IMG/VR virus record: IMGVR_UViG_3300036770_002724
Span: 75,037-139,036 of that record
Strand: one strand, 5' to 3'
Source: a virus
DNA: 64,000 bases
Shown here piece after piece: positions 9,290-56,791 of this stretch. Below the pieces are notes generated by a model. The model searched no databases and was not told the DNA's origin. It saw only the letters and a program-made list of their open reading frames with translations. Both the position numbers and the translations under genes were made by a program. The first letter of the stretch is position 1. Each line of letters starts with the position of its first letter.

Positions 9290-9306
9290 ACGGCGGAGGC
9301 GTTGAC

Positions 9307-16364: not shown

Positions 16365-16384
16365 TCCATGACGGATTAGGACTG

Positions 16385-16422
16385 GGAAGGGGGTGTCGGG
16401 TGAGAGCCTGACACCCCCTTCC
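16385..16422. terminator. Probable bidirectional terminator hairpin
   Basis: 16-bp stem GGAAGGGGGTGTCGGG / CCTGACACCCCCTTCC with 6-nt loop, between convergent genes. Confidence 0.8.
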
Positions 16423-16436
16423 TGTTTCCTGGGAGT

Positions 16437-16904
16437 TCAAGCGGCAGCGGCGAGTCCGTCAAGCTGCTTGAGGATCTGCACCTTCCGCTCATTCGAGGGC
16501 TTCACGCCCGAGGGGAAGTAGCTGTTCACGGTCTCAGCGTCCACACCGAGGTCCAGAGCCCGCTTGCAAATCTCCTCCTTCGAGGGGAGCGCCACCCGGC
16601 CCTTGTCCGAGACGGTGAGCGTGAAGCCCGCGAGGGTGCGAGTCTCACCCGACGGGGCCTCGGCCTTGTCGGTGGCCTCCTCGACCTTGGCCTCGGCCTT
16701 GGGCTTCCGCTTCACCACGACCTTCTCGGCCTTCGGAGCCTTGGGCGCCTTCGGAGCCTTCTCGGCCTTGGGCGCCTCGACGGTCTCGGTGGTCGCGGCG
16801 GGCTTCGCCTTCAGCGACTCGATCTCGTTGAGCGCCGCCTGAGCGGCGTTCGCGAGCGCGAGCGACTGGTGGTACACGGTCTTGAGGTGCATTTCGAGCG
16901 ACAT
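16437..16904 (-). CDS. Lys/Ala/Pro-rich, histone-H1-like protein on the antisense strand
   Basis: KAEKAPKAPKAPKAEK repeats; AAGGA RBS; strong codon periodicity. Confidence 0.75.
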   Translation of the reverse strand: MSLEMHLKTVYHQSLALANAAQAALNEIESLKAKPAATTETVEAPKAEKAPKAPKAPKAEKVVVKRKPKAEAKVEEATDKAEAPSGETRTLAGFTLTVSDKGRVALPSKEEICKRALDLGVDAETVNSYFPSGVKPSNERKVQILKQLDGLAAAA

Positions 16905-40249: not shown

Positions 40250-40768
40250 ATGAGCGACTTCGAGCAAGCCCTTGCCTTGACCCTTCAGTTTGAGGGTGGC
40301 TATTCCAACCATCCCAAGGATCCGGGGGGCGCCACGATGAAGGGTGTCACGCAGCGGGTTTTCGACAAGTACTGCACGGACAACCGGATTCCTCATCGGG
40401 ACGTCCGCACGATCACGGACGACGAGGTGGAGGACATCTACCTCAACCGCTACTGGATTCCGGCGAAGTGCATGTTGTTTTCTTGGCCCCTCAACGCGGC
40501 CATCTTCGACTTCGCGGTGAACTCGGGGGTCTCTCGGGCCATCATCGAGCTTCAGCGATGTGTCGGGGTCAAGACGGACGGGATCTTCGGTCCCGTCACG
40601 AAGAAAGCGGCGACTCAGATGGACCAGACGAAGCTCGTCGGTCAGTATCTCGACGCGCGCGTGGCTTTCCTGGAGGTCATTATGAAGCAGAACCCGGCGC
40701 TCGAAGCCTTTAGGAAGGGCTGGATGCGTCGGGTCGCTACGCTTCGGAAGGGGCTTTTGGGGAAGTGA
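40250..40768 (+). CDS. GH108 lysozyme-family endolysin with peptidoglycan-binding C-terminus
   Basis: EGGYSNHPKDPGGAT..GVT; FDFAVNSG; F.KGWMRR. Confidence 0.92.
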   Translation: MSDFEQALALTLQFEGGYSNHPKDPGGATMKGVTQRVFDKYCTDNRIPHRDVRTITDDEVEDIYLNRYWIPAKCMLFSWPLNAAIFDFAVNSGVSRAIIELQRCVGVKTDGIFGPVTKKAATQMDQTKLVGQYLDARVAFLEVIMKQNPALEAFRKGWMRRVATLRKGLLGK

Positions 40769-41297
40769 TGTTCGCGGCCTTACGTTCCATGCGCCGGGCT
40801 CGAAGGCTCTTTTTCAGTTCGTCGAACAACGCCCACAGGTGAGGGTCATGGGGTTTACGGACTTGCTCAAGGACATCTTCGACGGTGGCTTCGGGCAAGG
40901 CTTTCTTCAAGTGGGAGAGGCACTTCTGGTAGAAGACGTAGAGGATTCCTCGGGGCTGCGCCGACCATCCCAGAGCCTCCACCACGTCCAGGGAGTCTCC
41001 GGCAGCCATGATCGTCTGGGCGATGACCTCGGGAGCGATGATCGCCCCCTCGTAGATCGTAGGGAACAGGGGTGTCCAGGAGCCTTCGTCGGCGTTTGAT
41101 GTCAGATAGTTCGCCCCTTGGCATATCCAAAATAGCTGGTCCTCAAGGGGGAAAAGGCTGACCGGGGGCCAGCCTTCGGGCAAGGCATTGGTGGACGCTT
41201 TCGGGCGGTCGTGTCGAAGGTTCCGTTGCTTTTCGAGTCTTTTGCGTCGGGACGTTTTCTTTTCGTCCGCCCGTTTATCTCGTCTCGTTTTGGTCAT
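40737..41297 (-). CDS. Hypothetical protein with basic N-terminus
   Basis: MTKTRRDKRADEKKTSRRKRLEKQR then globular region. Confidence 0.65.
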   Translation of the reverse strand: MTKTRRDKRADEKKTSRRKRLEKQRNLRHDRPKASTNALPEGWPPVSLFPLEDQLFWICQGANYLTSNADEGSWTPLFPTIYEGAIIAPEVIAQTIMAAGDSLDVVEALGWSAQPRGILYVFYQKCLSHLKKALPEATVEDVLEQVRKPHDPHLWALFDELKKSLRARRMERKAANITSPKAPSEA

Positions 41298-41409
41298 GCC
41301 GAAGAACCTTACCCGCAGACCCTGCAAGCCTCGTTAGACTTCTTATAGCCTCGCTTCAAGTGACGACACGGGTTCGTGTCGATGGACCGATCTCTGGAGG
41401 AAGATTGAC

Positions 41410-42297: not shown

Positions 42298-42963
42298 TCA
42301 CTCTCTCCCAAGGGAACCGTCCAGCACCCGCCTCACCATCTCCGTCACCCGGTCGATCTCCGACTGCCCGTCCAGGATGACGGGTTTGCAGTCTGGGTGA
42401 AGAAAAGCCCCCAACCGGGCGTCGTCGAGCAAATTGAGATACCTCTGACGGACCCTCTCCAGGATGTCCCGTTGCTCGTAGACCTCGACGTTCGTCCGCA
42501 GGTCGATTCGCTCTGCACTTGTCTTGGGGTCTACATCAAGGACGACCAGGTGCGTCGGTTGAACGGGGAGCTTCGTGTGCAGCGCGTAGAGCCAGTCAAG
42601 GGGCCATTGTTCTTGCTGGTACACAAGGGTCGAGAGGAACGACCGGCAAGAAATGACCGGGCGCCCCTCCGCGAGCGCAGGCAGGATGACCTCGTGCTGA
42701 AGCGCCAGACGGTTTGCAAGAAAAAGGGCTGCGTGGCTCTCGGGATGCCCGCCCGTTTTCAGTAGCTTGCGAAGAAGCTGGCCGAACGGGTTTTTCTCGT
42801 AGGGCTCCTCGACGCGAAGTACGTCGTAGCCTTCCCCGCGCAAGAGCCCGGACAGGCGATACGACTGCGTGGACTTCCCAGAACCGTCCGGGCCTTCGAT
42901 CACAATGTAGACAGGTTTTGAGGTTCGACGGGACACGGCGAACCGTACCCCGTCGGACCTCAA
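42298..42963 (-). CDS. tmk: Thymidylate (dTMP) kinase
   Basis: IVIEGPDGSGKSTQ P-loop; LFLANR; R..LSTLVYQ; VLDVDP. Confidence 0.92.
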   Translation of the reverse strand: MRSDGVRFAVSRRTSKPVYIVIEGPDGSGKSTQSYRLSGLLRGEGYDVLRVEEPYEKNPFGQLLRKLLKTGGHPESHAALFLANRLALQHEVILPALAEGRPVISCRSFLSTLVYQQEQWPLDWLYALHTKLPVQPTHLVVLDVDPKTSAERIDLRTNVEVYEQRDILERVRQRYLNLLDDARLGAFLHPDCKPVILDGQSEIDRVTEMVRRVLDGSLGRE

Positions 42964-42969
42964 AAGTCC

Positions 42970-43323
42970 TCAGTTGGGGATCCCAGCAGGGGTCGGGCGC
43001 AAGCGCCACACGCGGGCATACTGCGCGACGAAGCCCGCAGGGACATCGACGCCCAGATCGTCGAACAGCCCCGTTGCGAGGATGCGCTGGAGGCAATCCT
43101 CGTAGTTGTGGGACCGGACGAAAAAGCACCCCTCGGGCAAGGGCTCATCCGGCAGGTTGACGGTGAGCATCATGTCCGGTTCCCACCAGACTTCACCGTC
43201 TTCCCGCACCTCGACCTCCAATCCCAGGGCAGGACGCCCGTTGGGATAGGCCCCCGTGGTGAACCGGCGAACACCCTGCTCGCCGGGGATCTGGACCTCT
43301 CGGCCCTTCAGGGACTCAAACAT
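42970..43323 (-). CDS. DUF4313-like small protein
   Basis: YPNGRPAL.L...EP...LTVNLP...FV. Confidence 0.55.
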   Translation of the reverse strand: MFESLKGREVQIPGEQGVRRFTTGAYPNGRPALGLEVEVREDGEVWWEPDMMLTVNLPDEPLPEGCFFVRSHNYEDCLQRILATGLFDDLGVDVPAGFVAQYARVWRLRPTPAGIPN

Positions 43324-43472
43324 CACACCCCCTCCTTGGGCCGGACGACCAGCCAATGATGCCCGTCCACGACTTCGTGGACGACCGTGAAACGGGGCGC
43401 CACAGGCGCCTCGTCGCAGTCGGGCTCCATCGCGAGGAGCTGGACTGCGGTGAAGTCGATCTCGTTGCTCAT
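43323..43472 (-). CDS. 49-aa hypothetical, putative leaderless gene
   Basis: ATG 7 nt after class A motif; TGATG coupling to next gene. Confidence 0.65.
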   Translation of the reverse strand: MSNEIDFTAVQLLAMEPDCDEAPVAPRFTVVHEVVDGHHWLVVRPKEGV

Positions 43473-43479
43473 GTCTATC

Positions 43480-43566
43480 CTATCCGCGACCCGACCCCTT
43501 TTAGCCACAATCGGAAAAGGTCGCCCCTTGTCGTTTTGTGGCTAAACCGAGGTCGGTCGAGAGTAG
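43480..43566. promoter_or_regulatory. Divergent pair of class A motifs (copy 3 at 43480-43510 minus; copy 4 at 43536-43566 plus)
   Basis: Both have the fixed N13 spacer; 7 and 10 nt to ATG. Confidence 0.85.
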
Positions 43567-43576
43567 CTAAGGGGAG

Positions 43577-43924
43577 ATGAACATCATCAACCTCACTCCC
43601 CACCCCATCAACCTCCGAGCCGCCGACGGCTCGGACACCATCATCCCCGCTTCGGGGACCGTCGCCCGGGTGACCTCGACCCCGGGCACCGCGACCTCGG
43701 TCGCGGGCGTGCCTGTCCCGGTCTATGGCCGGGACTCCTATGGGGAGGTCACCGGCCTCCCCGCCCCCTCCGAGGGGACCTTCCTGATCGTCTCCGCCCT
43801 CGTGGGCGGGGCGGTCGCCGGGACTCGGGACGATGTCCTGGTCCCGGGCACTGGCCCCGCCGACGGGGCCATCCGCGATGATGCGGGTCGCATCATCGCC
43901 GTGACCCGCCTCAAGCGGGTCTGA
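43577..43924 (+). CDS. NLTPH-motif small protein; putative Crn4-like ring nuclease
   Basis: IINLTPHPI...IPASGTVARV...LPAP..G..LIVS...R.DVLVPG...RD..GRI; family assignment from memory. Confidence 0.5.
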   Translation: MNIINLTPHPINLRAADGSDTIIPASGTVARVTSTPGTATSVAGVPVPVYGRDSYGEVTGLPAPSEGTFLIVSALVGGAVAGTRDDVLVPGTGPADGAIRDDAGRIIAVTRLKRV

Positions 43925-43930
43925 CCCGGC

Positions 43931-43964
43931 ATCCCCATGCAGCCTCCCCCGCCTGCATGGGGAT
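43931..43964. other. Perfect 12-bp hairpin between co-directional genes
   Basis: ATCCCCATGCAG / CTGCATGGGGAT, 10-nt loop, no U tract. Confidence 0.6.
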
Positions 43965-43979
43965 CAAACGGAACCCCCC

Positions 43980-44465
43980 ATGAACATCTTTCACGTTGAC
44001 CGAAGCCCTGTGGTCGCGGCTCAAGCTCTGTGCGACGTCCACGTCGTCAAGATGGTGGTCGAAAGCGCCCAACTCCTTTCGACCGCCCAGCACACGTTCG
44101 GGCTCGCCGCTCCCTACAAGCCGACGCATCGGAAGCATCCCTGCGCGCTATGGGTTCAGGAAGGGGTCGAAAACTACCTCTGGCTCCTCGACCATCTCAA
44201 AGCCCTGTGCGTTGAATACACGGCGCGCTACAAGCGCAAGCACTCCACGGAGCGTCACCTGTGGGACTTGATGCACGTCCCTACTGACATCCCAATCCGG
44301 TGGACATCCCCACCTCAAGCGATGCCCGATCAGTTCAAGCACCATGACCCCGTTCAGGCGTACCGAGCCTACTACCGCCACAAGGCAAAGACCCTGCCCC
44401 GTTTCAGCTACAAGGGACGCCAGCCGCCCGCTTGGCTCTCCGAGGTTCCGGATGCGACCAGATGA
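43980..44465 (+). CDS. Pyrimidine-dimer DNA glycosylase family (endonuclease V-like)
   Basis: MNIF...A..LCD.HVVKM..ESAQLLSTA...YKPTH..HPC..WV...NY.WL. Confidence 0.88.
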   Translation: MNIFHVDRSPVVAAQALCDVHVVKMVVESAQLLSTAQHTFGLAAPYKPTHRKHPCALWVQEGVENYLWLLDHLKALCVEYTARYKRKHSTERHLWDLMHVPTDIPIRWTSPPQAMPDQFKHHDPVQAYRAYYRHKAKTLPRFSYKGRQPPAWLSEVPDATR

Positions 44466-44709
44466 GCGCCAGTCGGGTTCGAGGGTCCGGGTCGTCCAAC
44501 TGCTCTCGACGCAGGGACTCCTGGTCGAGCCTGCCTATCTGGACCAACGCCGATCAGGGGCCGAGGGCGTCCTGGTTCGGGCGCTCCGAGGCAACGCCGA
44601 CTTCTGGTGGGTTCGACATCCTGACGGGTCGATGGCCCCCTACTCCTATCTGGAGGTCCAGCCCCTTGAGCCCCTGGTCTCCGAGGGCTGGGAAGACTCG
44701 CCCCTGTAG
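44452..44709 (+). CDS. Small SH3-like hypothetical protein
   Basis: Overlaps upstream stop; WWVRHPDGSMAPY. Confidence 0.55.
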   Translation: MRPDERQSGSRVRVVQLLSTQGLLVEPAYLDQRRSGAEGVLVRALRGNADFWWVRHPDGSMAPYSYLEVQPLEPLVSEGWEDSPL

Positions 44710-44767
44710 ACGACGCGGGTATCTTTCATCCTGTGAACCGTTACGACGGTAAACACAGGGCAGCTAG

Positions 44768-47700
44768 ATGAAGACCGCCGTTTTCTTTGTCGCCACGACG
44801 TACCGGCCCACGCTTCTTCGACAATCCTTGAAGCGGCTCACGAGGCAACGGGGCGTCCCTTCCGATTGGAGGATCGAGGTCCATGTCGCTGGCGAGCCCG
44901 GAGATCCAGGAAAGGGGGTCGTATCGAATCACCCAGGGACTTTCTACCACGATGTCGGTAGCAGGTCGGTCACGGACAAGCTCAACTCGCTTCTGGTAGC
45001 CACCAAAAGCGATCTGGTGATGCTCGCGGACGATGACGACATCCAGTCATGGGATCGAGCGGCAGAAGCTATCAAAGCCTACGAGAACGGAGCGGAGTGG
45101 TCCTGTTCGGGGACGTGTCTCTACTACGATCTTCACCACGATCTGTTGACCCGGTGGACCGGGGTGTCCGCCGAAGGGCTCATCGGGACGATGGCTTCTT
45201 TCGCGACCCCCTTGCTCCAGGCGGTTCGCGGATGGCCCTCGGTGTCTCGCGGCAAGGACGGTCGGTTGGTAGCCCGGATACGGTCGCTCCGGCGTCCTGT
45301 TCGGTTCGCGGATTTGACGGTGGCTCTAGGCAACAAGACGATCTGCCTCCAACACGATAAGAATCTTTGGAACCGCCCCCTTGTCCCTCAAGGGGCAACG
45401 GATCGTCGAGGTCGTCATGCTATCCTGGGCTTGGGGGGAATCGCGAGCAACGTCGCCCTTCTGGGGGAGGACACCGTAAGTCTCTTGACTGAAACGGCGG
45501 GAGAACTCAGGTCCAGAAAAGCCGAAAGCTCTTCCCTCCCGCCGCCTTCTCCATCCCAGCCTCCCCCTCCTATTCCGGCGAGGATTTCTGCCTATCTACC
45601 GAAGGCTCCTGCTCCGTTCCAGGCTCCGGCTCCTCCCTTGTCACCCGCTGTTCTGGAACGACCCCCGCGACCCGCACACCCGAAAGAAAGCCTTGGAACC
45701 GTTTGCGACGTACACGTCGCCATAACGACCTACAATCGTCCGGGTCCGCTTGCGGATCTTCTGAAGGACCTTGTTCGGGAGCGCGGGGATCGAAAGGTCC
45801 ACGTCGTCATCTACGACGATGGAAGCGATCAGGATTACAGCGAAGTGCGCGCTTTCGCTATTTCCCAAGGGTGGTTGTTCCGTAGGTCGGATTCCAATCG
45901 GGGCAAGAAAGGCTACTACAGGACGGTGTCCGAGGCTCTGAAGGAAGCAGAGCGGAGTCAGACAGATCGCTTCCTGTTCATACAGGACGATATGCGCTTG
46001 TGTGCCGATTTCTTTAGTCGGGTCTTTGACTTGTGGGACCAGATCCAAGACCCCAAAAAAGTCTCGCTCTATCTTCTCAGGGACAGTAACAGGTCCGAGA
46101 TCGGGACCGTCTGCTGGACTGGGTTTCGGTCCCGGGTCGAAGGTCCCGTCGAACGAACCCAATGGGTAGACTGCAACGCTTTCCTTTTCAACCGGGACTT
46201 CTTGGATGTCCTGGGCGCGGAGCTTCGACCCATACCGGAAAGCCGTTGGCTCAAAGGCGACGTCTTGTCCTCGGGTGTCGGCCAACAACTCAGCCTTCGT
46301 CTTCACCACGCCGGGAGGGGGCTCTACCGGAGTCTCTTGTCCTACGTCTCTCATTCCGAGGGTCCGTCTAGGATGAACCCGAAGATCCGAAAGAGGGTTC
46401 CGATGACGACAGAGTCCTTCGCAGACGAGAAAGTTGTTCAGAAGGCCCGCTACTCGGATAAAGTTACGGCCCCGGCCCTACCGGAAGCTGGACGAAAGTC
46501 GCTTCCTTCCGCCCAGACTGTCTCGGTCTTGATTGCCGCCTACAGGGCCGACAAGTGGCTGATCGAATCCGTGAATAGCGTTCTGAGCCAAGAACTTCCT
46601 CCTGGCTGGAATCTGGAAGTCCTCGTAGGGGTGGACGGTTGCCCGGAGACGCTCGCCGTCGCTCAGACTATTGAGGACAGGCGGTTTGGCGTGGTTTCCT
46701 TCCCGGTAAATAGCGGGACTTACGTCACCTTCAACTCCCTCGTTCCCTTGTCCAGAGGCTCTATTCTTGTACGTCACGATGCGGATGACGTGATGCTTCC
46801 GACGCGCCTGCACAAGATGATCAGAGCGTTCGAGGACCCGGAGGTGGGCCGCGTAACGACGTGGGTCGCGGAAAAAAATGTATACCCTGAGCCTCTTATA
46901 GAGTCCCCCTCTAAGGGCCGCAAAATACGCGACGGAACGTGGTCTTACCGTCGAGATGTCTTTGAGAATCTTCTCGGAGGTTTCCTACCTTGGAGGTGTG
47001 CGGCAGACACGGAAATGGATCTCAGGTCTCGTTCTTTGGGGGTCAAGTCGCACATAGTGTGTGAATACTTATATCTTCGACGTTCGCATCCCGGCCAACT
47101 CACTCAGACTGAAGAAACGGGCTACGGAAGCGCCCTTCGGAAAGACTACGCGAAGCGTATAGACGAATTGATAATAGAATACGCGGCGAATAAGCCTAAG
47201 CCCGTCGTCCCCACCAGAGTTGAGGGGGTCAGGCTTGGGGGCTTGTTCTCCGACAAGATCACAGCCTCGATGGCTTCGATCCCCGGTCGTCGCGAAGGGC
47301 TTGAAAAGGTTGTCCGAAGCCTGCTCCCGCAGGTCGATCACCTGAACGTCTACCTGAATGAGACCCCTTCGATTCCGGGGATTGAGTATCCGCACACCCC
47401 GGATTTCTTGAGACACCCTAAGATCACGGCGATCTGGTCACGGGATACGCCGTTCGGAGATAGAGGGGATGCCGGGAAGTTCTACTGGGCGGATGAGGTC
47501 CAGGGTTACCACGTCATCTGCGACGACGACCTCCTATACCCTTCAGACTTCGTTGAGACGTTGATCGCGGGTGTCGAAAGGTACGGTCGAAAGGCTGCGG
47601 TCGGGTTCCACGGGGCCGTGCTTACCGAACCTTTCACCGAATACTACAGGTCGCGCCGGGTTTACCACTTTCAGCGATCCCTCGACGCCGACGCTCCCGT

Positions 47701-48682
47701 TCACGTCCTCGGGTCAGGCACGCTCGCCTACCATACAAGCGCGCTCGTCTTGACGCGAGAGGACTTCAGAACGGCGAACATGGCTGACATCTGGTTTGGC
47801 TTGAAAGCCCAGCGAGAAGAGGTTCTTCTAGTCTGTCTGGCCCACAAAGAAGGGTGGTTGACGGACGATTCGTCCACAAGGACGGATTCGATCTACGCGC
47901 ACTCAATCAAGAAGGCTCAGACTCAAAAGAACACGGCGGATCTACAGACGAAGGTAGTCAAAGAGTCTTGGCCTTGGACGCTCCCAGTAGACAGGAAGGG
48001 AGGGGCCGTCTGCAAATCCGATCCTTCGGTACTTGAGGTCAAAGGACCGACTCGGACTGCTAGGATCTCGGTCGAGTCTGGAGACCATACCCACAAGTTC
48101 ATCTGCGCTACAGGGACCTACTACGAGTTCGACCTTCTTCATGCCGTTCGAGACCTGAAGATAGAAGGGCTCTATGTTGACGTTGGGGCTAATACGGGGA
48201 ACCATACGACGTTCTTCCGTCTGGAGTGCCCTTCGACTCGGGTGGTAGCTATCGAGCCCGACTCGGAAAACCTGGCCCATCTTTACAGGACGATCCGTCT
48301 GAACGACCTCGAAGAGTCCGTGGACGTGCGACCTGTCGCGATCCACCCGACGCTTTCTCGCGTTTCGATGGTCCAAGGTATCCCGAAAAACAAAGGGACC
48401 ATGCGAATCGAAGGCGAGGGGGACATCGAGGCTCAGACCTTGGATCGTTGCCTGGAAGGTCTTGAACCCGCCTTGATCAAGATCGACGTCGAGGGCTTGC
48501 CCCTAGAAGTGCTTCGCTCTGGGAGGAGTATCGTCGAGCGTTGCCTTCCCGTGATTGTCTGCGAAGCCAATGATCACGAGGCTTCCTCGATAGACGCTTT
48601 CCTCGGTGATTTGGGGTACGAAAGAAACCCCAAGCGGTACTGCGCCACCGCGACTTGGATATGGCAGGCGAAGACCGGGTGA
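44768..48682 (+). CDS. Multidomain protein: four GT-A/GT2-like glycosyltransferase domains plus FkbM methyltransferase
   Basis: DxD-type motifs MLADDDD, FIQDD, RHDADD, ICDDDLLYP; VDVGANTGNH...AIEP...IKIDVEG. Confidence 0.88.
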   Translation: MKTAVFFVATTYRPTLLRQSLKRLTRQRGVPSDWRIEVHVAGEPGDPGKGVVSNHPGTFYHDVGSRSVTDKLNSLLVATKSDLVMLADDDDIQSWDRAAEAIKAYENGAEWSCSGTCLYYDLHHDLLTRWTGVSAEGLIGTMASFATPLLQAVRGWPSVSRGKDGRLVARIRSLRRPVRFADLTVALGNKTICLQHDKNLWNRPLVPQGATDRRGRHAILGLGGIASNVALLGEDTVSLLTETAGELRSRKAESSSLPPPSPSQPPPPIPARISAYLPKAPAPFQAPAPPLSPAVLERPPRPAHPKESLGTVCDVHVAITTYNRPGPLADLLKDLVRERGDRKVHVVIYDDGSDQDYSEVRAFAISQGWLFRRSDSNRGKKGYYRTVSEALKEAERSQTDRFLFIQDDMRLCADFFSRVFDLWDQIQDPKKVSLYLLRDSNRSEIGTVCWTGFRSRVEGPVERTQWVDCNAFLFNRDFLDVLGAELRPIPESRWLKGDVLSSGVGQQLSLRLHHAGRGLYRSLLSYVSHSEGPSRMNPKIRKRVPMTTESFADEKVVQKARYSDKVTAPALPEAGRKSLPSAQTVSVLIAAYRADKWLIESVNSVLSQELPPGWNLEVLVGVDGCPETLAVAQTIEDRRFGVVSFPVNSGTYVTFNSLVPLSRGSILVRHDADDVMLPTRLHKMIRAFEDPEVGRVTTWVAEKNVYPEPLIESPSKGRKIRDGTWSYRRDVFENLLGGFLPWRCAADTEMDLRSRSLGVKSHIVCEYLYLRRSHPGQLTQTEETGYGSALRKDYAKRIDELIIEYAANKPKPVVPTRVEGVRLGGLFSDKITASMASIPGRREGLEKVVRSLLPQVDHLNVYLNETPSIPGIEYPHTPDFLRHPKITAIWSRDTPFGDRGDAGKFYWADEVQGYHVICDDDLLYPSDFVETLIAGVERYGRKAAVGFHGAVLTEPFTEYYRSRRVYHFQRSLDADAPVHVLGSGTLAYHTSALVLTREDFRTANMADIWFGLKAQREEVLLVCLAHKEGWLTDDSSTRTDSIYAHSIKKAQTQKNTADLQTKVVKESWPWTLPVDRKGGAVCKSDPSVLEVKGPTRTARISVESGDHTHKFICATGTYYEFDLLHAVRDLKIEGLYVDVGANTGNHTTFFRLECPSTRVVAIEPDSENLAHLYRTIRLNDLEESVDVRPVAIHPTLSRVSMVQGIPKNKGTMRIEGEGDIEAQTLDRCLEGLEPALIKIDVEGLPLEVLRSGRSIVERCLPVIVCEANDHEASSIDAFLGDLGYERNPKRYCATATWIWQAKTG

Positions 48683-48737
48683 GGATCGAGGAGGCGGGTC
48701 GGAGACTTCGCGATTTTCTTTATAGCCAAAGATAGAG

Positions 48738-49043
48738 GTGAGCAACCTTATCAGGCGCATCGCTTCGCGCTACATCCGAGCCGCCCGTTTCCGACGCGGG
48801 GATCTCGCGACTTACAAGGGTAAGACCTATCGGATCGGCTTCGCTGGTCCGACGAAGTTCGGGGATCGGGCGAAGCTCGTGTTCCTCGACGGAAGCAAAG
48901 AGTTCTGGGTCGATCTTAGTCTCGTCTCTCCCGCAGAGGAGAGCGAGGAGCGCGTCTCCTGGGAGGAAGCCCAGCTTCTCGACGAAGACATGGGAATCTA
49001 CCGGCCCGATAGCTACTACCGCAGCCGTTACCGCCGGGGCTGA
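48738..49043 (+). CDS. Small protein with basic RRIASRY leader and SH3-like domain
   Basis: MSNLIRRIASRYIRAA; KLVFLDGSKEFWVD. Confidence 0.7.
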   Translation: MSNLIRRIASRYIRAARFRRGDLATYKGKTYRIGFAGPTKFGDRAKLVFLDGSKEFWVDLSLVSPAEESEERVSWEEAQLLDEDMGIYRPDSYYRSRYRRG

Positions 49044-49053
49044 TCCGACTTGA

Positions 49054-49419
49054 TCAGGCGTCGTAAGCGCCCTTCAGAAGCGCGATCTCCGTTCGGGCCT
49101 CTACCAAGGCTTTCTCGGCTTGTTCAGCCCGCCGCTTCCAGTCATCCGCGTCCACAGGGCTTGGTTCCGCACCCAGAAGGAAGGTCGCGAACCCTGGGGT
49201 ATACTCCCCAACGTAGGCCCCTTGCTTGTTGGACGAGAAGTAGTCCTCGGCTTCTTCGTAAGACATGCCCTCATCAATGAGGATGCGGATGCACTTGTCC
49301 CGGTCGTACAAGGCCACGACGCTGGTGAACACCTCAACGTAACCGACCAAAGCCTCATCAAACCCGTCTGCGAACATTAGGTCCGGATGGATCTCTGCTA
49401 GGCGTTCTTTTCTGTTCAT
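49054..49419 (-). CDS. Conserved phage hypothetical protein
   Basis: ADGFDEALVG...YDRDKCI.IL...MSYEEA.DYF..N..GAYVGE.TP. Confidence 0.75.
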   Translation of the reverse strand: MNRKERLAEIHPDLMFADGFDEALVGYVEVFTSVVALYDRDKCIRILIDEGMSYEEAEDYFSSNKQGAYVGEYTPGFATFLLGAEPSPVDADDWKRRAEQAEKALVEARTEIALLKGAYDA

Positions 49420-49841
49420 GGTTCCTCCTCCCCGTCCAGGAGGCTCACGGGAGTCTCGGGTGTCTTGAGGTAGGTGCAGGCCATTGTGATAGCCTGCACG
49501 ACTCCCATGAGGCTCTGACGGACCCGCTCTAGTTCCGCTCGAAGCTCCGGCATATCCCCTGTTGCCAGGGACCTGACGACCCGGGGCTGTTGCTTCATGT
49601 CATCCGAGGGGTACTCCATGAGCATGAAGACAGCATCCCCAGATTTCTCAATCTCGTTCATCGCCTCCAGCGTGACCGAGACGTTGACCTTGTAGCGCCA
49701 TACTTGGACTTCGTAGCAGACTCCGCCAATGCGGTCCCACTTCTTCAGTCGCGACCCGGGAAACAAGTCATTGAGCGCGACCTCTACGGCGTTGGGTCGG
49801 ACCTTGATTTTCACCGGCTCCAACGGATCCAAGGTGTCCAT
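49416..49841 (-). CDS. Hypothetical protein
   Basis: Coupled ORF in minus-strand cluster. Confidence 0.6.
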   Translation of the reverse strand: MDTLDPLEPVKIKVRPNAVEVALNDLFPGSRLKKWDRIGGVCYEVQVWRYKVNVSVTLEAMNEIEKSGDAVFMLMEYPSDDMKQQPRVVRSLATGDMPELRAELERVRQSLMGVVQAITMACTYLKTPETPVSLLDGEEEP

Positions 49842-49849
49842 TTCGCCCC

Positions 49850-50110
49850 CTACCCAGAGATCATGCTGAAGACCAAGACAAGAAGCCCTGCAAAGAGCAG
49901 TAGCCCGCCTAGTCCTGAAGTCACAAGGGCGCGGATGATCTTCTGATCTTCCGCATCTTCGTCGATGATCGGGTCGTTCCAAGACCGGAGGTGACTCATG
50001 GATCCCCTCCGGTTCGGTCGCTTCCGGTACACGGACGCTAGCTCGGATGCGATCACCGCGATGACCAAAGTCAGTCCGAAGACTGAGAGGAGAAGCCCCA
50101 AGATGATCAT
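49850..50110 (-). CDS. Two-TM small membrane protein
   Basis: Two hydrophobic helices. Confidence 0.6.
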   Translation of the reverse strand: MIILGLLLSVFGLTLVIAVIASELASVYRKRPNRRGSMSHLRSWNDPIIDEDAEDQKIIRALVTSGLGGLLLFAGLLVLVFSMISG

Positions 50111-50409
50111 GTCGTCTGGCGGGTGGCCAACTCGGTTGTCAGTTCTTCCGTCGAATAGAAGCTCAGAGGCGTGCGAAACATCCCCCTCTGGAACGAGAGG
50201 ACGATAGCCTGGGGCGCGTTCACGGCACCCAGCTTCTCAAAGATCCGCGCGCGGTGTGCTTCGACGGTCTTGACCGAGATCGACATCTTCTGTGCGATCT
50301 GGCTGTTTGTTTCACCCCCGGCGAGGCTCAAGAGAACCTCGGTTTCCCGAGGGCTCAAGTCTCGACCCAAGAGCTTCTTTCGATCTGACGGCAACTCGAC
50401 TTCGTTCAT
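50107..50409 (-). CDS. LuxR/NarL-type HTH-only transcriptional regulator
   Basis: LSPRETEVLLSLAGGETNSQIAQKMSISVKTVEAHRARIFEKLG. Confidence 0.92.
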   Translation of the reverse strand: MNEVELPSDRKKLLGRDLSPRETEVLLSLAGGETNSQIAQKMSISVKTVEAHRARIFEKLGAVNAPQAIVLSFQRGMFRTPLSFYSTEELTTELATRQTT

Positions 50410-50512
50410 GTCTTTTTTACTCCGTAGGCAGGAAACCATACCCGCCGCCGCTTTTCTACTCGATCCAGGGCTTCTTTCAACCGTCCGGCCTGTCTTCGTT
50501 GGGCTTTTACGA

Positions 50513-50543
50513 TTGTGGCTAAACTGAGGTCCGATTGGAGTAG
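50513..50543 (+). promoter_or_regulatory. Class A motif copy 5
   Basis: TTGTGGCTAAAC-N13-GAGTAG; 8 nt to ligase ATG. Confidence 0.8.
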
Positions 50544-50551
50544 CTAGGGAT

Positions 50552-52468
50552 ATGGAGATCGAAGCCCTCGTCACGAGGCTGGAAGCGGCACGGGATGCCT
50601 ACTACAACGGCATCCCGTGTATGTCGGATGCGGAGTACGACGCTCTGGAGGACTCCCTCCGAAGTATCGATCCGCAGCATCCCTTCCTGGGGAAGATCGG
50701 GGCGATGGTCCCGGTCAACGGTGCGTGGCCCAAGGTCGCGCACCGTCAGCCCATGTCCTCGCTCAACAAGGCCCAGACGGCAAGCGACTTCGCCGCCTGG
50801 TGGCGGGACTGCGGCTACAATGAACTGCGACCGGACCTGTGTCCGGTCCTGGTGATGGAAAAGCTCGACGGAGCCTCCATCTCCCTGGAGTACCGTCGGG
50901 GTCGCCTGGTCCGCGCCGTCACGCGGGGTGATGGCACGACCGGGGAGGACGTGACCCGGAACGTCCGTCTGATGCAAGGGACGGTCAAGCAGGTCCCCGG
51001 CTTCGACGGGTTCATCCGGGGTGAGGTGATCGTCACCCGGTCCAACTTCAAGCGGTACTTCCCGGGCGAGTCGAATCCGAGGAACACCGCTGCGGGAACG
51101 ATGAAGCGCCAGTCAGGGAACGACAAGTGCCGTTACCTGACGGTCATGGCTTACCGCGTCATCTCGGATGATCATACGTTCGAGGATTCGATGGCGGAGA
51201 TCGTCACCCTCAACAACTGGGGGTTCCTGACGCCTTTCGCCCTTCGGTGCGACTACATCGCGGACGTGGACGCTCTGTATTACGAGTACGTCAACCACAA
51301 GCGGGAGTCGCTCGACTACGACATCGACGGTCTGGTGGTCGAAGTCCTGAGCGCCGGTCACCGGGAGCATCTGGGCGAACTGAACAATCGACCGAAGGGT
51401 GCGGTAGCCTACAAGTTCCCTCACGAGCAAAAGCAGACCTTCCTGCGGGCGATCAACTGGCAGGTGGGGAACAGCGGGCGCATTACGCCCGTGGCCGTGT
51501 TCGACACGGTCAATCTCGCAGGCGCCAACGTCAGTCAGGCTAGCCTCCACAACGTGAGCTACGTCAGGGAGCTTGCCCAGCAGGTCGGGAATCCCTCGTT
51601 GGCCTTCGGTGATACGATCCTCGTGTCCCGTCGGAATGACGTGATCCCCTATGTCGAGGCTGTGCTTGCGACGGCGAAGATCGCGCCTTATGACATCCCG
51701 ACGGCGTGTCCGTGCTGCGCTTCGACCCTCCTGATGGAAGGGGAGTACCTCGTCTGCCGGAATGAGGACTGTGACGCCCAAGCCTCGGGTGCGGTCAAGC
51801 GTTGGGTCAAAAAGGTAGGCATCCTCCACCTTGGGGATGCCATCATTGAAGCCTTGATCGACCAGCAGATCATCCAGGATGTTGCTGACCTCTACACGCT
51901 GACTGAGGACAAGCTGGCTTCCGTGGACATGGACGGAAAGGTCGTCGGGGGGAACGCCTCCCGGATCGTGAAGCAGATCCAAGGGAAGCGAGTCCTCCCG
52001 CTTCACGTCTTTGTGGGGTCACTCGGTATCCCGCTCATCGGGCGGTCGATGGCAAAGACCATCGTGGATGCGGGTTACGACAGCCTACACAAGATGGCGA
52101 AGGCAAAGATCGCAGAGGTGGCGACCATTCCGGGGGTGGGGCAAACCAAGGCGGACGCCTTCGTTCGCGGCTACTGGGCGAAAATGCACATCGTCGCCAA
52201 GCTGATTGCCAACGGGGTCGAGATCCAAAAGGTCGTGACCGGGTCTATGTCCGGCAAGTCCGTCTGCATGACGGGCTTCCGCGACAAGACGATGGAGGAC
52301 GAGGTCGAGGCCCAGGGGGGAACGATCAAGTCGGGTGTCTCCAAGGGCTTGACCTATCTGGTGGCGTCTGACCCGAACAGTAACTCCTCCAAGATCCAGA
52401 AGGCTCGCGAGTACGGGACGCAGATTGTCGGGATCCAGGAGATGTGGAGCTTGCTTGGTCGGCCTTGA
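50552..52468 (+). CDS. ligA: NAD+-dependent DNA ligase
   Basis: YYNG...SDAEYD, EKLDG, TRGDGTTGEDVT, DGLVV, zinc finger CPCC..C..C, HhH repeats, BRCT. Confidence 0.97.
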   Translation: MEIEALVTRLEAARDAYYNGIPCMSDAEYDALEDSLRSIDPQHPFLGKIGAMVPVNGAWPKVAHRQPMSSLNKAQTASDFAAWWRDCGYNELRPDLCPVLVMEKLDGASISLEYRRGRLVRAVTRGDGTTGEDVTRNVRLMQGTVKQVPGFDGFIRGEVIVTRSNFKRYFPGESNPRNTAAGTMKRQSGNDKCRYLTVMAYRVISDDHTFEDSMAEIVTLNNWGFLTPFALRCDYIADVDALYYEYVNHKRESLDYDIDGLVVEVLSAGHREHLGELNNRPKGAVAYKFPHEQKQTFLRAINWQVGNSGRITPVAVFDTVNLAGANVSQASLHNVSYVRELAQQVGNPSLAFGDTILVSRRNDVIPYVEAVLATAKIAPYDIPTACPCCASTLLMEGEYLVCRNEDCDAQASGAVKRWVKKVGILHLGDAIIEALIDQQIIQDVADLYTLTEDKLASVDMDGKVVGGNASRIVKQIQGKRVLPLHVFVGSLGIPLIGRSMAKTIVDAGYDSLHKMAKAKIAEVATIPGVGQTKADAFVRGYWAKMHIVAKLIANGVEIQKVVTGSMSGKSVCMTGFRDKTMEDEVEAQGGTIKSGVSKGLTYLVASDPNSNSSKIQKAREYGTQIVGIQEMWSLLGRP

Positions 52469-53315: not shown

Positions 53316-53366
53316 TCTATCCCGCCTTCTCGGTAGGGCGCTTCGTGCGCTTTGTCGAGGTGGTCT

Positions 53367-54524
53367 ATGTCGATCCCTACTACGGGAACTCTCGGGCTAG
53401 GAAGTCTTCTTGATCGGCTCCCGACGAACTACAACGTCACGAGCGTCGCCTCCAACCAAGTTCTTTCGGACGTCGACGTAGGTAAGAATTACCTCGTTAC
53501 GACGGGGGTCTCGAACATCTCGATCACGCTTCCCGCAGCCGCCAGCACGTCGGGGAAGACGATCCAGATCACCAAAGCCGATTCGGGCGCGGGTCGAGTC
53601 GAGATCAATACGTCCTTCGCCCACCTGTACGCGCAGGGGGATACGGTAACGGTCCAGTCGGACGGGACTTCGTGGAGCGCGGTCTCGGTGAAGATCGCCC
53701 CTCTCAGTCAGATTTTCGTTTCGAGCGGGACGTATACCCTTCCGCCCCTCGCGACCCGGCTCACCATCGAAGCCTACGGGGGCGGGGGCGGGGGCGGTCG
53801 GGGCTTCGCGGGAGCTGGAGGGACCGCTCGAAGCGGAGGTGGGGGCGGAGGAGGCGGCGGCTATTCTAGCGTCACCGTGACCACTCAGGGGCTATCCTCG
53901 CCGTTGCCCGTGACCATCGCATCGGGAGGAAACGGCGCCTCTGCGGGTTCCGGGATTAGCGGGGGCTCCGGCTCCCTTGGTGGGAATACCAGCCTGGGGG
54001 ATCTGTCCGCGCCCCTCCTTCGAGCTTTCGGTGCTTTCGGAGGCGTCGCTGGCTCTGACGTTTCTGCTCAAACGAGCGGGGGGACCGGCGCCGCTGCTTA
54101 CGGAGGCGACGGGGCTCGTCAACTTTCTCCCGGTTTTTCTCCTCCCACGCCCGTAACGGTTGGTGCGGGGGCCGGAGGAGGGGGGGGAGGCGCGATCACA
54201 GGAGGGGGTTCGATTGCAGGGGGTAGTAACGGGGGCTTCGGCGGTCGGCTTCGAGGTCCAGGGACTCAAGGGGGTCTTAGAGGTCTAACCGACGGTGAAA
54301 CAGGCCAGACCCCGACAGCAGCCGTCCCTACGGCTCTCAACTTCGTCGCCAACGGAGGCGGGGGCGGGGGCGCCGCTTCGGTCCTCGGAACGTCGGGCGC
54401 AGGAGGTGCCGGGGGCTATCCGGCGGGCGGCGGGGGCGGCTCAGGAGCCGCTACGTCAGGAAATACGGCAGCAGCGGGCGGAAGGGGCGGCGACGGGGTG
54501 CTTCTCGTGACCGCTATGTTCTGA
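53367..54524 (+). CDS. Glycine-rich fibre/decoration protein
   Basis: ITLPAA...GKTIQITKAD...QSDGTSW fibre-type domain followed by GGGGGGG-rich domain ending GGRGGDGVLLV. Confidence 0.75.
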   Translation: MSIPTTGTLGLGSLLDRLPTNYNVTSVASNQVLSDVDVGKNYLVTTGVSNISITLPAAASTSGKTIQITKADSGAGRVEINTSFAHLYAQGDTVTVQSDGTSWSAVSVKIAPLSQIFVSSGTYTLPPLATRLTIEAYGGGGGGGRGFAGAGGTARSGGGGGGGGGYSSVTVTTQGLSSPLPVTIASGGNGASAGSGISGGSGSLGGNTSLGDLSAPLLRAFGAFGGVAGSDVSAQTSGGTGAAAYGGDGARQLSPGFSPPTPVTVGAGAGGGGGGAITGGGSIAGGSNGGFGGRLRGPGTQGGLRGLTDGETGQTPTAAVPTALNFVANGGGGGGAASVLGTSGAGGAGGYPAGGGGGSGAATSGNTAAAGGRGGDGVLLVTAMF

Positions 54525-54983: not shown

Positions 54984-55496
54984 ATGACTATAGCAACTGA
55001 TGGCTTCGGCACGATCATCGACGACATCCTCGCTGGGGCGGGGGCCACGGGGGCTACAGGCCCGACCGGGGCTACAGGCCCGACCGGGGCAGGAGCCACG
55101 GGGGCCACGGGGGCCACGGGGGCCACGGGGGCCACGGGGGCTACAGGCCCGACGGGAGCGGGGTCGGGGACGAGCACGATACGGCTCATCCTGAGTCCGG
55201 AGACGATGACCGGAACGGTGGAGACGGCGGTCGGGTCGGTCTATCTGAGCGCCGCTACGGCTACGACAATCAGGGCTTTCATAGGATGTCAGGACGCCCT
55301 ACAGGCGGCGACGATGGTGCTCCGGCGTAGTAGCGACTCCTCTTTGATTACCACCATTGGTGGCGTTGCTGGCGGGGTCACGGAGCGGACGGTGTCTTCG
55401 GTGTCCTTCCCCTCAACCGGCTGGTACGACATCTTTCTCTACACGAACAACGTCTCGGGGGTCGGCATCGCGCGCGGCCTCACCTTGGAGTTCTGA
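54984..55496 (+). CDS. Collagen-like (G-X-T) protein with C-terminal beta domain
   Basis: GATGATGPTGATGPTG-A-GATGATGATGATGATGPTG. Confidence 0.8.
   Translation: MTIATDGFGTIIDDILAGAGATGATGPTGATGPTGAGATGATGATGATGATGATGPTGAGSGTSTIRLILSPETMTGTVETAVGSVYLSAATATTIRAFIGCQDALQAATMVLRRSSDSSLITTIGGVAGGVTERTVSSVSFPSTGWYDIFLYTNNVSGVGIARGLTLEF
55041..55157 (+). repeat. 9-bp tandem repeats (GGGGCCACG and variants) encoding collagen triplets
   Basis: Direct reading. Confidence 0.9.
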
Positions 55497-55499
55497 CGG

Positions 55500-55751
55500 A
55501 TGATCTACGCCATCAATGAAGAAGAGGCTCCGATCCTGATTGACCCGACGGGGTCGGATTGCGTGGTCGAATGGCTCGTTACGGGCGTCGTTTCTTATTC
55601 GGTCACCGGGGGTTCTTGGACTGAAGACGTGGGCGGAGCGACGTCGATCCACGCTTCGGTATCTCCCGACGGGATGTTTTCCGTTTCGACCGGAAGCTGG
55701 AAAAAGACCTATCAGTTCAGCGGGACTGAGCTTGTGGAGGTTGCGTCGTGA
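55500..55751 (+). CDS. Small hypothetical protein
   Basis: Coupled within cluster. Confidence 0.55.
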   Translation: MIYAINEEEAPILIDPTGSDCVVEWLVTGVVSYSVTGGSWTEDVGGATSIHASVSPDGMFSVSTGSWKKTYQFSGTELVEVAS

Positions 55752-56791
55752 CGACTTTCCAAAAGAACTGGGGCGGGACCAACGGTCGGGGCTCATGGAA
55801 CAATGTCCCGACGGCGCAGACGACGGCTCTGGAGCAGTCGCAGAGTATGCTCTTTGCCCTCAAAGGGTGGCTCGTGAGCCTGGGCTGGACGGTCGATTGT
55901 AGTTCGGATAGCGTGTCGGCTTCGGGTCCGTCCGGCGGAACAGACTACTGGGTTTCGGAAACGAACCTTGTTTGGGCAGCGAGCGGGTCAGCACATTCTT
56001 GGATCTGGCTTCGGAGCCCCAACAACTTCCCGACTACGGGAAGAAACTACTGGCTCCTCATCGACTGCAACAACGCCAGCAACCATTTCGCGTCGTTCTC
56101 TTTTGCCTCGGGTGTCCCCACGGGTTCGGTTGCGGCGGGCGCGGGAAACTTCAACGTCAACTACTCGGGGACCGCGACGAACGCTAACGCCTTCGCCGCA
56201 AAGCAGTTTCGTCACACCTCCCTGGTGGCGAGCAAGTACCACATGCTCGGGACTACGGAGGGGGACTTCATCTTCACGACCTCCGAAGACCTGTCCGGCT
56301 ACTACCAGTTCGGATTGGCCATTCTCAAGACTCGCGACTACAAGACGGCAGATCTTTGGCCTGCCGTAGAGATCGCTAACTGGGTCAGGACAACGGTCAA
56401 CACGGTCAATCAGGGAGCCTGGGGTGTTCAGTCTCTCGGCCACGGCGCTACTACGGCGGTGAATGGACACCATGCGCTTACCGGAGCCGCAGGCGCAACG
56501 GCGGGTGTCGCCAATTTCTACGGCCAATCCAGCTATTCGCTTCAGGCACAGGCGTTCAATGACATCGACGGGCTTGAAGTTGACATGCCCGTAGTCATCT
56601 GGTCTCAGACGTCCCCTTCTCGGGACTTCCGGGGCTACTTGCCGGATATTCGGGCTGCTGCTACAGCCTCCATCACCACCCCTCCGACGCAGAACATTGG
56701 AGACGTAGAACCGACGTCCCCTCCGGCGACCATCGACTCAACGCGGGTAGGGGGCTTTTGGTTCCCCTGCGACGTCGTCCCGTCCCTTTGA
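55748..56791 (+). CDS. Putative virion structural protein (S/T/G/A/W-rich)
   Basis: 347 aa beta-type composition; context. Confidence 0.5.
   Translation: MTTFQKNWGGTNGRGSWNNVPTAQTTALEQSQSMLFALKGWLVSLGWTVDCSSDSVSASGPSGGTDYWVSETNLVWAASGSAHSWIWLRSPNNFPTTGRNYWLLIDCNNASNHFASFSFASGVPTGSVAAGAGNFNVNYSGTATNANAFAAKQFRHTSLVASKYHMLGTTEGDFIFTTSEDLSGYYQFGLAILKTRDYKTADLWPAVEIANWVRTTVNTVNQGAWGVQSLGHGATTAVNGHHALTGAAGATAGVANFYGQSSYSLQAQAFNDIDGLEVDMPVVIWSQTSPSRDFRGYLPDIRAAATASITTPPTQNIGDVEPTSPPATIDSTRVGGFWFPCDVVPSL

Follow-up and report, generated by a model that had tools for sequence, protein, structure and literature searches.

The 64,000-nucleotide window of DNA analyzed here (bases 75037-139036 of the 139-kb IMG/VR virus record IMGVR_UViG_3300036770_002724) contains a single open reading frame (ORF) of 1304 codons that has no internal stop, begins at the first start codon past the upstream stop, and encodes a protein with five recognizable enzyme domains: four glycosyltransferase (GT) domains, here called D1 to D4, and a C-terminal FkbM-family methyltransferase (Table 1). 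CheckV puts the completeness of the record at 26%, which makes it a fragment of an uncultured huge phage with a genome of roughly half a megabase, and the gene-absence results given below for this record cover only about 26% of that genome (three quarters of it is missing). A preliminary description made from the nucleotide sequence had proposed four glycosyltransferase domains and one methyltransferase in one polypeptide; all five assignments hold, and every motif it quoted is found in the 1304-aa translation. It had also raised the possibility that the domains lack catalytic residues, and alignment of each domain with its relatives (13-103 relatives per domain) showed the motifs to be intact in all five: the consensus residue is present throughout the protein in the columns that are at least 90% conserved, so nothing points to a dead domain. 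The maximum Kyte-Doolittle hydropathy over 19-residue stretches is 1.19, below the transmembrane level, and the enzyme is thus predicted to be soluble and to have no membrane segment.

Table 1. Positions, in window coordinates, of the five-domain enzyme gene, its domains and the other features discussed in the text (residue numbers are those of the 1304-aa protein).
Feature	Position (nt)	Strand	Residues and motifs	Basis
1304-aa five-domain glycosyltransferase/methyltransferase, whole gene	44768-48682	+	1-1304	single open frame
D1, GT2-like GT-A domain (predicted fold)	44768-45517	+	1-250; FFVATTYRP 6-14, MLADDDD 85-91, DDDD 88-91	AlphaFold2, Foldseek
Pro-rich linker	45518-45682	+	251-305	36% proline, pI 10.3
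D2, GT2 domain	45683-46477	+	306-570; VAITTYNRP 317-325, IYDDGS 348-353, DD 350-351, FIQDD 404-408, DD 407-408	PF00535
D3, GT2 domain	46478-47257	+	571-830; VSVLIAAY 585-592, D623, RHDADD 669-674, DADD 671-674, D747	PF00535
D4, GT45-like domain (predicted retaining transferase)	47258-48007	+	831-1080; ITASMASIPGR 831-841, ICDDDLLYP 917-925, DDD 919-921, NMAD 1004-1007	PmHS2/KfiA homology
FkbM-family S-adenosylmethionine (SAM) methyltransferase	48008-48679	+	1081-1304; VDVGANTGNH 1137-1146, KIDVEG 1238-1243	TIGR01444, PF05050, phrog_8156
237-codon antisense ORF	45641-46354			
ORF with homologs at syntenic loci	40740-41333			
Thymidylate kinase, conserved syntenic neighbor	42298-42963	-		PF02223, E 1.2e-30
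DenV-like pyrimidine-dimer DNA glycosylase	43980-44465	+		PF03013, E 4.7e-9
155-aa GerE/LuxR-type helix-turn-helix protein	50107-50574	-		sigma-70 region-4 match, E 2.5e-18
390-aa protein, mostly glycine runs	53352-54524	+		
170-aa collagen-like protein, 13 G-A/P-T triplets (speculative candidate acceptor)	54984-55496	+		translation, regex scan
347-aa protein	55748-56791	+		
LamG-domain protein	58725-60884			
335-aa Volactin ORF	8282-9289	+		PF25216, end to end, E 1.7e-74

The public gene call at this locus, P0002, is 769 aa long and identical to residues 536-1304; it starts at Met536 (nt 46373), just past the antisense ORF listed in Table 1, and so is without the first 535 residues, which comprise D1 and most of D2. 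Both of the domains dropped in this way have clear homologs in the same frame, and the public call is wrong in that two domains are missing from it. The sequence GAGGG is located 12-16 nt upstream of the internal ATG at 46373, so a shorter isoform that starts at Met536 may also be made.

D1 was identified mainly through its relatives and its predicted structure. The domain matches Pfam weakly (E 0.003; 18.1 bits with PF13641, below threshold) and has no direct sequence match in the PDB. A profile built from four orthologous D1 domains matches the GT2 structure 9jma (E 9.5e-5), and the D1 copy in a related viral locus (L007, below) matches PF00535 with an E-value of 2.3e-19 (70 bits). An AlphaFold2 model made from six D1 sequences (mean pLDDT, the predicted local distance difference test score, 90.2) gave 398 PDB matches at E<=1e-3 in Foldseek; all of the listed ones are GT-A glycosyltransferases, the leaders being 6p61, AvpGT (9jn3), SpsA, WrtF and PmHS2, each at a probability of 1.00. 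The model thus supports a GT2-like GT-A fold for D1, and its invariant residues D46, D88-91, D164 and D182 are retained.

The GT-A fold prediction was made for D1, and D2 and D3 were assigned by sequence profile. D2 matches PF00535 (E 1.6e-6, 28.6 bits; cut-off 23.3) and GlfT2 (E 2e-4), aligns with the A1 domain of the chondroitin polymerase K4CP, and retains its conserved columns including D350/351 and D407/408. D3 has a stronger match to the same family (E 3.5e-14, 53.5 bits), matches 6p61 (E 2.7e-6) and also the K4CP A2 domain, and its acidic residues D623, D671/673/674 and D747 lie in columns that are at least 90% conserved. D1, D2 and D3 are predicted to be inverting-type, metal/DxD-dependent GT2-type domains. 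PHROGs contains no family that matches any GT domain of the protein.

The preliminary description had taken D4 to be a generic glycosyltransferase; a glycosyltransferase it is, but not a generic one. Over its whole length it matches the N-acetylglucosamine (GlcNAc)-transferase half of the Pasteurella heparosan synthase PmHS2 (chain positions 304-532) with an E-value of 1.1e-34 and E. coli KfiA (6-210) with an E-value of 2e-17. Its DDD aligns with the CDDD of PmHS2; D1007, the last residue of its NMAD motif, lines up with the Asp in PmHS2 MAD and KfiA FVD, and at least 90% of 103 relatives keep it. For GT45 enzymes, an almost invariant Asp (PmHS2 Asp569) has been proposed to be the covalent nucleophile (bioRxiv 10.64898/2026.10.20.760405), and D1007 is probably its counterpart, judging from spacing. 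D4 is accordingly classed as GT45-like, and its predicted activity is that of a retaining transferase of alpha-linked N-acetylhexosamine or hexose. The methyltransferase assignment is straightforward: the domain scores 76.1 bits against TIGR01444 (cut-off 37.7) and 60.2 bits against PF05050 (E 3.6e-16, cut-off 22.7), and conserves motif I (D1138, G1140, A1141, G1144), E1163 and D1240/E1242. With three inverting GT-A domains, a GT45 domain that retains and an FkbM O-methyltransferase, the protein is predicted to be able to form as many as four glycosidic bonds, not all of the same anomeric type, and to carry out one methylation.

Is this protein an isolated oddity? Among the 50,697 GenBank phage records searched with blastn and tblastn there is no D4 relative and no GT45 domain, and the whole protein gives only three short, unrelated domain matches there. 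A search of a 5.8-billion-cluster protein collection found the exact five-domain order in no other protein; many proteins there combine these modules in different orders. The closest relative, P0003 (80% identity in D1), is D1-D2-D4-Methyltransf_24-FkbM; it is collinear with the window protein for D1-D2, with a linker of similar length between them, and from D4 through the methyltransferase, and D3 is missing there. Other arrangements are D2-D4-D1-FkbM (P0004), D2-D1-D4-D2-FkbM (P0009), D1-D4-D2-FkbM (P0011), D1-D2-D4-GT4 (P0012) and D1-D3-D4 plus two class-I methyltransferases (P0010). In IMG/VR at least 80 loci carry these GT and methyltransferase modules, and they range from three adjacent single-domain genes in small AT-rich contigs to fusions of 1200-1300 aa in contigs of 120-436 kb. 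A profile was needed to find the D1 relatives, as a scan of IMG/VR with the single D1 sequence gave no match. PHROGs identified only an endolysin among the neighbors in one of the small AT-rich viral contigs.

Two of these viral loci are syntenic with the window: L007 (123 kb) encodes D2'-D1-D2-D4-D1 and L012 (402 kb, with terminal repeats) encodes D1-D4-D2-FkbM, and upstream of the multi-GT gene both have homologs of the window's thymidylate kinase (48-54% identity) and of ORF 40740-41333. At one and the same locus, related huge phages therefore encode enzymes put together in different ways. Relatives also swap in an extra methyltransferase or GT-B domains, and a GT2+GT45 pair (D2-D4 or D3-D4) recurs in nearly all of them. 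Such re-ordering and swapping of modules at a syntenic locus is expected if the structure of the glycan is what varies. The earlier suggestion that a five-domain fusion would be unusual in a phage thus stands for GenBank, where nothing similar is found among the phage records, but uncultured huge phages carry equally complex, re-ordered fusions; the 1304-aa enzyme is unusual among cultured phages and belongs, with those of uncultured huge phages, to a family of multi-domain glyco-enzymes with shuffled modules.

One relative has a more extensive set of partners. In the complete 436-kb genome at L089, a 1328-aa D1-GT2-GTB-methyltransferase protein is followed (positions 11339-16538) by genes for a methyltransferase, a GDSL-like protein, a radical-SAM protein, a GDP-fucose-synthase-like protein, a GDP-mannose 4,6-dehydratase (E 9e-149) and an adenosine 5'-phosphosulfate (APS) kinase, and this gene cluster is a self-contained glycan pathway. 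The APS kinase hints at sulfation, and a PG_binding_1 protein and a uracil-DNA glycosylase (UDG) are encoded upstream of the cluster.

Bacteria contain many proteins of 700-1800 aa that combine FkbM and multiple GT domains, and the preliminary description had noted that the architecture might be a common host enzyme that was recently acquired. The sub-architecture is indeed common in bacteria, but the acquisition is not recent. A GT2-GT45-FkbM core of 740-790 aa (D2-D4-FkbM) is a chromosomal gene in Actinomycetes (Kribbella, Actinomadura and several metagenome-assembled genomes); these genes match the core alignment at 53-77% identity, and the phage modules are 41-45% identical to the Actinomycete core proteins. 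A maximum-likelihood tree built from 128 D4 domains places the window D4 closest to other metagenomic multi-domain proteins, at 0.6-1.9 substitutions per site, and the copies in bacterial genomes are all at least 2.1 substitutions per site away from it. The G+C content at third codon positions is 0.62-0.70 in the enzyme domains, slightly below the 0.67-0.82 of the other phage genes. Recent capture from a host is ruled out by the D4 tree distances and the near-phage third-position composition; the sequence comparisons indicate that the family is shared with bacteria and that this phage copy was not recently captured.

The bacterial loci whose context can be read contain candidate protein substrates. 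Across the Actinomycetes (L094-L099) the core gene keeps as neighbors the genes for a 1356-aa protein, a 1352-aa protein with the extracellular contractile injection system (eCIS)-core domain DUF4157 and a 648-aa GT2 protein, the Kribbella locus (L099, 4408-22153) additionally has trypsin/endonuclease and AAA_16 genes, and no transporter is present among the ORFs tested beside the core genes. This Actinomycete cluster may be a glycosylated toxin, an eCIS-cargo or a defense locus. In Rhizobium (L112, 2705-20003) an FkbM-GT45 gene for a protein of about 600 aa lies inside a flagellar cluster, beside three flagellin genes and those for MotB, FliP, FlgI, FlgG and FliI; the FkbM-GT45 gene of Aquabacterium adjoins two flagellin genes, and that of Agrobacterium is near FliI and FlgG. 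Flagellin glycosylation islands are known to include both FkbM methyltransferases and fusions of a GT with a methyltransferase (PMC4875605; also PMC5109656). The FkbM-GT45 genes in flagellar clusters (L111, L112, L113 and L117) are often paired with a gene for a conserved 568-aa protein, and those of the Rhizobiales and Aquabacterium are a candidate flagellin glycosylation system. Larger proteobacterial forms, of 1100-1800 aa, are of Hyphomicrobium, Bosea, Pseudoxanthomonas and Achromobacter types, and ABC2_membrane matches in five bacterial genomes were not assignable to the GT loci. The bacterial fusions resemble the phage protein in having homologous D2, D4 and methyltransferase modules (35-45% identity), in being soluble and in lying beside candidate protein substrates; they differ in having fewer domains in another order (the methyltransferase is N-terminal in proteobacteria) and in that none has a domain of the D1 type.

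In the phage itself the enzyme gene is set among nucleotide and DNA-repair genes: the thymidylate kinase, an NAD-dependent ligase and the DenV-like glycosylase, whose gene ends 300 nt upstream of it. Six other viral loci (L029-L032, L049 and L084) encode homologs of the latter (38-39% identity), each a few kb downstream of an unrelated D4-bearing GT gene. No sigma-70-like promoter was found in 43300-50700, and a promoter and terminator scan of this region did no better than shuffled sequences. As the preliminary description had said of sugar-synthesis genes, none was found, here in the whole 139-kb record: it contains no further GT2, UDP-glucose dehydrogenase, epimerase/dehydratase or nucleotidyltransferase gene. 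The helix-turn-helix gene in Table 1 is divergent from the NAD-dependent ligase gene, and the Volactin ORF looks like an actin-family cytoskeletal protein of a huge phage.

What, then, would such an enzyme build, and on what acceptor? We tentatively favor a soluble multi-step glycan enzyme that makes a short, methyl-capped glycan on a protein made in infection, most plausibly a phage structural or fiber protein. Nucleotide sugars, presumably from the host, would be the donors; the four GT domains would add up to four different sugars in sequence, and the FkbM domain would then methylate a sugar hydroxyl and so cap the chain. Alternatively, the D3-D4 pair could make a short alternating repeat: D3 and D4 line up in order with the PmHS2 halves (residues 583-686 with 35-138, and 833-1070 with 303-532), and the recurrence of the GT2+GT45 pair in nearly all relatives makes such a repeat as possible as a linear four-sugar chain.

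A virus-encoded enzyme of this general kind has a precedent in the chloroviruses, whose enzymes have the major capsid protein as their target (PMC9614988, PMC7826918). PBCV-1 A064R has two rhamnosyltransferase domains and a methyltransferase, and A111/114R has three GT domains; they are like the phage protein in being virus-encoded, soluble multi-domain proteins, and they carry out, as it would, consecutive glycan steps with methylation of the terminal sugar. The third domain of A064R 2-O-methylates the terminal rhamnose (PMC9614988), which is the analogy behind the methyl cap that we propose; a further analogy is the way in which WbdD-type enzymes terminate O-antigen chains. A BLAST search with this domain in a chlorovirus review gave class-I SAM-dependent methyltransferases. 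A064R differs in belonging to a eukaryotic virus and in having three domains versus five in the phage protein, and the structure of its first domain is absent from the PDB sequence matches (E<=0.01) and from the listed Foldseek matches of D1, so the resemblance appears to be architectural only, with no detectable homology. The mycobacteriophages Che8, Corndog and Myrna provide a second precedent: their capsid and tail-tube proteins are glycosylated by cytoplasmic glycosyltransferases that the phages themselves encode (Freeman 2023, cited in PMC12619734), and these are separate single-domain genes, versus one fused protein here. A tblastn search with the whole protein against the GenBank phage set gave no match to the mycobacteriophage enzymes, which are unrelated at this sensitivity.

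The genomic context leans modestly toward a protein acceptor: the readable bacterial contexts are protein-centered (flagellins and giant proteins) with no transporters among the ORFs tested, no export partner accompanies the soluble phage enzyme, and both viral precedents, the chlorovirus capsid and the mycobacteriophage capsid and tail tube, are proteins. Several observations weigh in the other direction. GT2 and GT45 relatives of solved function use sugar or lipid-linked acceptors and not protein directly, the enzyme gene lies outside the structural block, and a flagellar context is found at only three of the 26 distinct bacterial GT45-bearing loci. Tagging as head cargo is unsupported, as the 1304-aa protein has no R[VI]AxR[YWF] tag. 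Two observations that concern a specific candidate acceptor are also unfavorable: collagen-like repeats are found in none of the close-relative records scanned (G001-G004, two of which are only 23-24% complete), and within 10 kb at only one of about 80 viral GT loci.

That candidate, put forward speculatively, is the 170-aa collagen-like protein encoded 6 kb downstream of the enzyme gene. A second and longer collagen-like ORF runs off the 5' end of the record (G000:C1:1-1389, locus L201); it has at least 49 consecutive GPT/GDT/GVT triplets followed by a 310-aa C-terminal domain for which there is no PDB sequence match. The PDB matches of the collagen-like proteins are low-complexity matches to BclA only (E 0.07). 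In Bacillus BclA, a pentasaccharide is O-linked at high density along the collagen-like region (PMC10050317). On this basis a more specific version of the protein reading, which we regard as unlikely, would have a tetrasaccharide with a methyl cap attached to threonine residues in the two BclA-like G-X-T collagen fibers of the phage and so form a glycan coat, diversified by domain shuffling in an arms race with hosts or grazers. A collagen-like acceptor as a family-wide rule was rejected, since G001-G004 have no GXY repeat, and the collagen-like protein is at best a lineage-specific acceptor. The glycine-run and 347-aa proteins of Table 1 are encoded on either side of the short collagen-like gene, and together with the LamG-domain protein this looks like a fiber or decoration module. 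A 308-kb viral record (G005, of locus L009) has a D4-bearing gene and three epimerase-family genes, together with long collagen-like stretches of G-X-Y (often G-P-T) in at least four places, among them 9118-9299, 103653-105565, 186101-186300 and 248658-248920.

Among the other readings, that which survives best, although we consider it doubtful, is remodeling of the host envelope: the enzyme would act at the inner membrane face, where it would extend and methyl-cap a host glycan, whether or not undecaprenyl-linked (O-antigen, capsule, a teichoic-type polymer or exopolysaccharide), and the altered surface might, for example, block superinfection or slow the adsorption of progeny. The closest solved relatives, PmHS2, KfiA and K4CP, are capsule polymerases and peripheral membrane enzymes, and a peripheral location would suit the basic character of D1, the linker and D2 (pI 9.0-10.3), which could favor a membrane or an anionic surface, but the phage protein has neither a transmembrane segment nor an obvious amphipathic anchor. 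The NCBIfam best matches of the protein, which are weak, are to exopolysaccharide, teichuronic-acid and poly-N-acetylglucosamine enzymes, and FkbM plus multi-GT proteins of 1100-1800 aa are numerous in bacteria; the bacterial contexts that can be read are nevertheless flagellar or giant-protein ones and not those of lipopolysaccharide. Terminal methylation by WbdD is a well-known chain-stop signal in ABC-transporter-dependent O-antigen synthesis, which would fit a methyl cap, but neither the phage gene nor, among the ORFs tested, the Kribbella homolog has a Wzm/Wzt, flippase or polymerase gene nearby.

A free glycosaminoglycan-like polymer is a quite unlikely product. In this case a GT2 domain (D3 or D2) and the GT45 domain D4 would alternate, the other GT domains would prime or branch, and the methyltransferase would terminate the chain. 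The comparison with PmHS2, KfiA and K4CP is what makes this conceivable: D4 is a clear GT45 homolog with the DDD and MAD-type Asp aligned, the NMAD Asp is kept in the family, and D3-D4 has the GT2-then-GT45 order and spacing of PmHS2, is collinear with both its halves and has no integral membrane part. The adjacency of D4 to D2 or D3 in almost all relatives and the synthesis of hyaluronan by chloroviruses (PMC9614988) agree with it. The GT2 half is only generically similar, though: the match of D3 to the glucuronic acid (GlcA)-transferase half of PmHS2 (E 1e-3) is at the generic GT2 level. The phage protein also has two extra GT2-like domains and a methyltransferase, and four GT domains plus a methyltransferase exceed what a two-sugar polymer needs; it is moreover phage-encoded, with no UDP-GlcA supply (no UDP-glucose dehydrogenase in the 26%-complete record), capsule export gene or other export route seen.

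Hypermodification of DNA, in which a methylated oligosaccharide would be built on a hydroxymethylated phage base and so evade restriction, is very unlikely: the neighboring thymidylate kinase (syntenic), DenV-like glycosylase and NAD ligase genes, the basic D1 and D2, the UDG and a weak ThyA-like ORF (PF00303) about 2 kb beyond the L089 cluster, and the phage GT-A/GT-B enzymes that add up to a trihexose on 5-hydroxymethylcytosine (bioRxiv 10.1101/2023.12.21.572611) would all fit it, but neither the 402-kb relative nor the 26%-complete record yielded a ThyA-like hydroxymethylase (PF00303), the DNA glycosyltransferases of the JGT/TarP-like and T4-like kinds are distinct from GT45 and from the GT2 subfamilies seen here, the GDP-6-deoxyhexose genes and APS kinase of L089 are typical of glycans and not known for DNA, and the bacterial homologs sit in flagellar or giant-protein loci. 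TET/JBP (PF12851) had no match in five records, and the control genomes were likewise without a match.

If active, the 1304-aa protein would have more domains than any other glycan-building enzyme so far known from a bacteriophage, and its GT45 (heparosan-synthase-type) domain would be the first in one. For chemoenzymatic synthesis, its five domains offer candidate transferases in compact form, and the bacterial FkbM-GT45 genes beside flagellins and GT2-GT45-FkbM genes beside eCIS-core giant proteins are candidate protein glycosylation systems in their own right. The value of the locus lies in the modular diversification at a syntenic position and in the concrete candidate that it offers for phage-directed protein glycosylation. 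Huge phages appear to own a modular glycosylation machinery that is re-assorted between relatives, and the coupling of the L089 enzyme to GDP-sugar genes, further methyltransferases and an APS kinase suggests that, as in giant eukaryotic viruses, the glycans are specified by the phage and vary as a trait.

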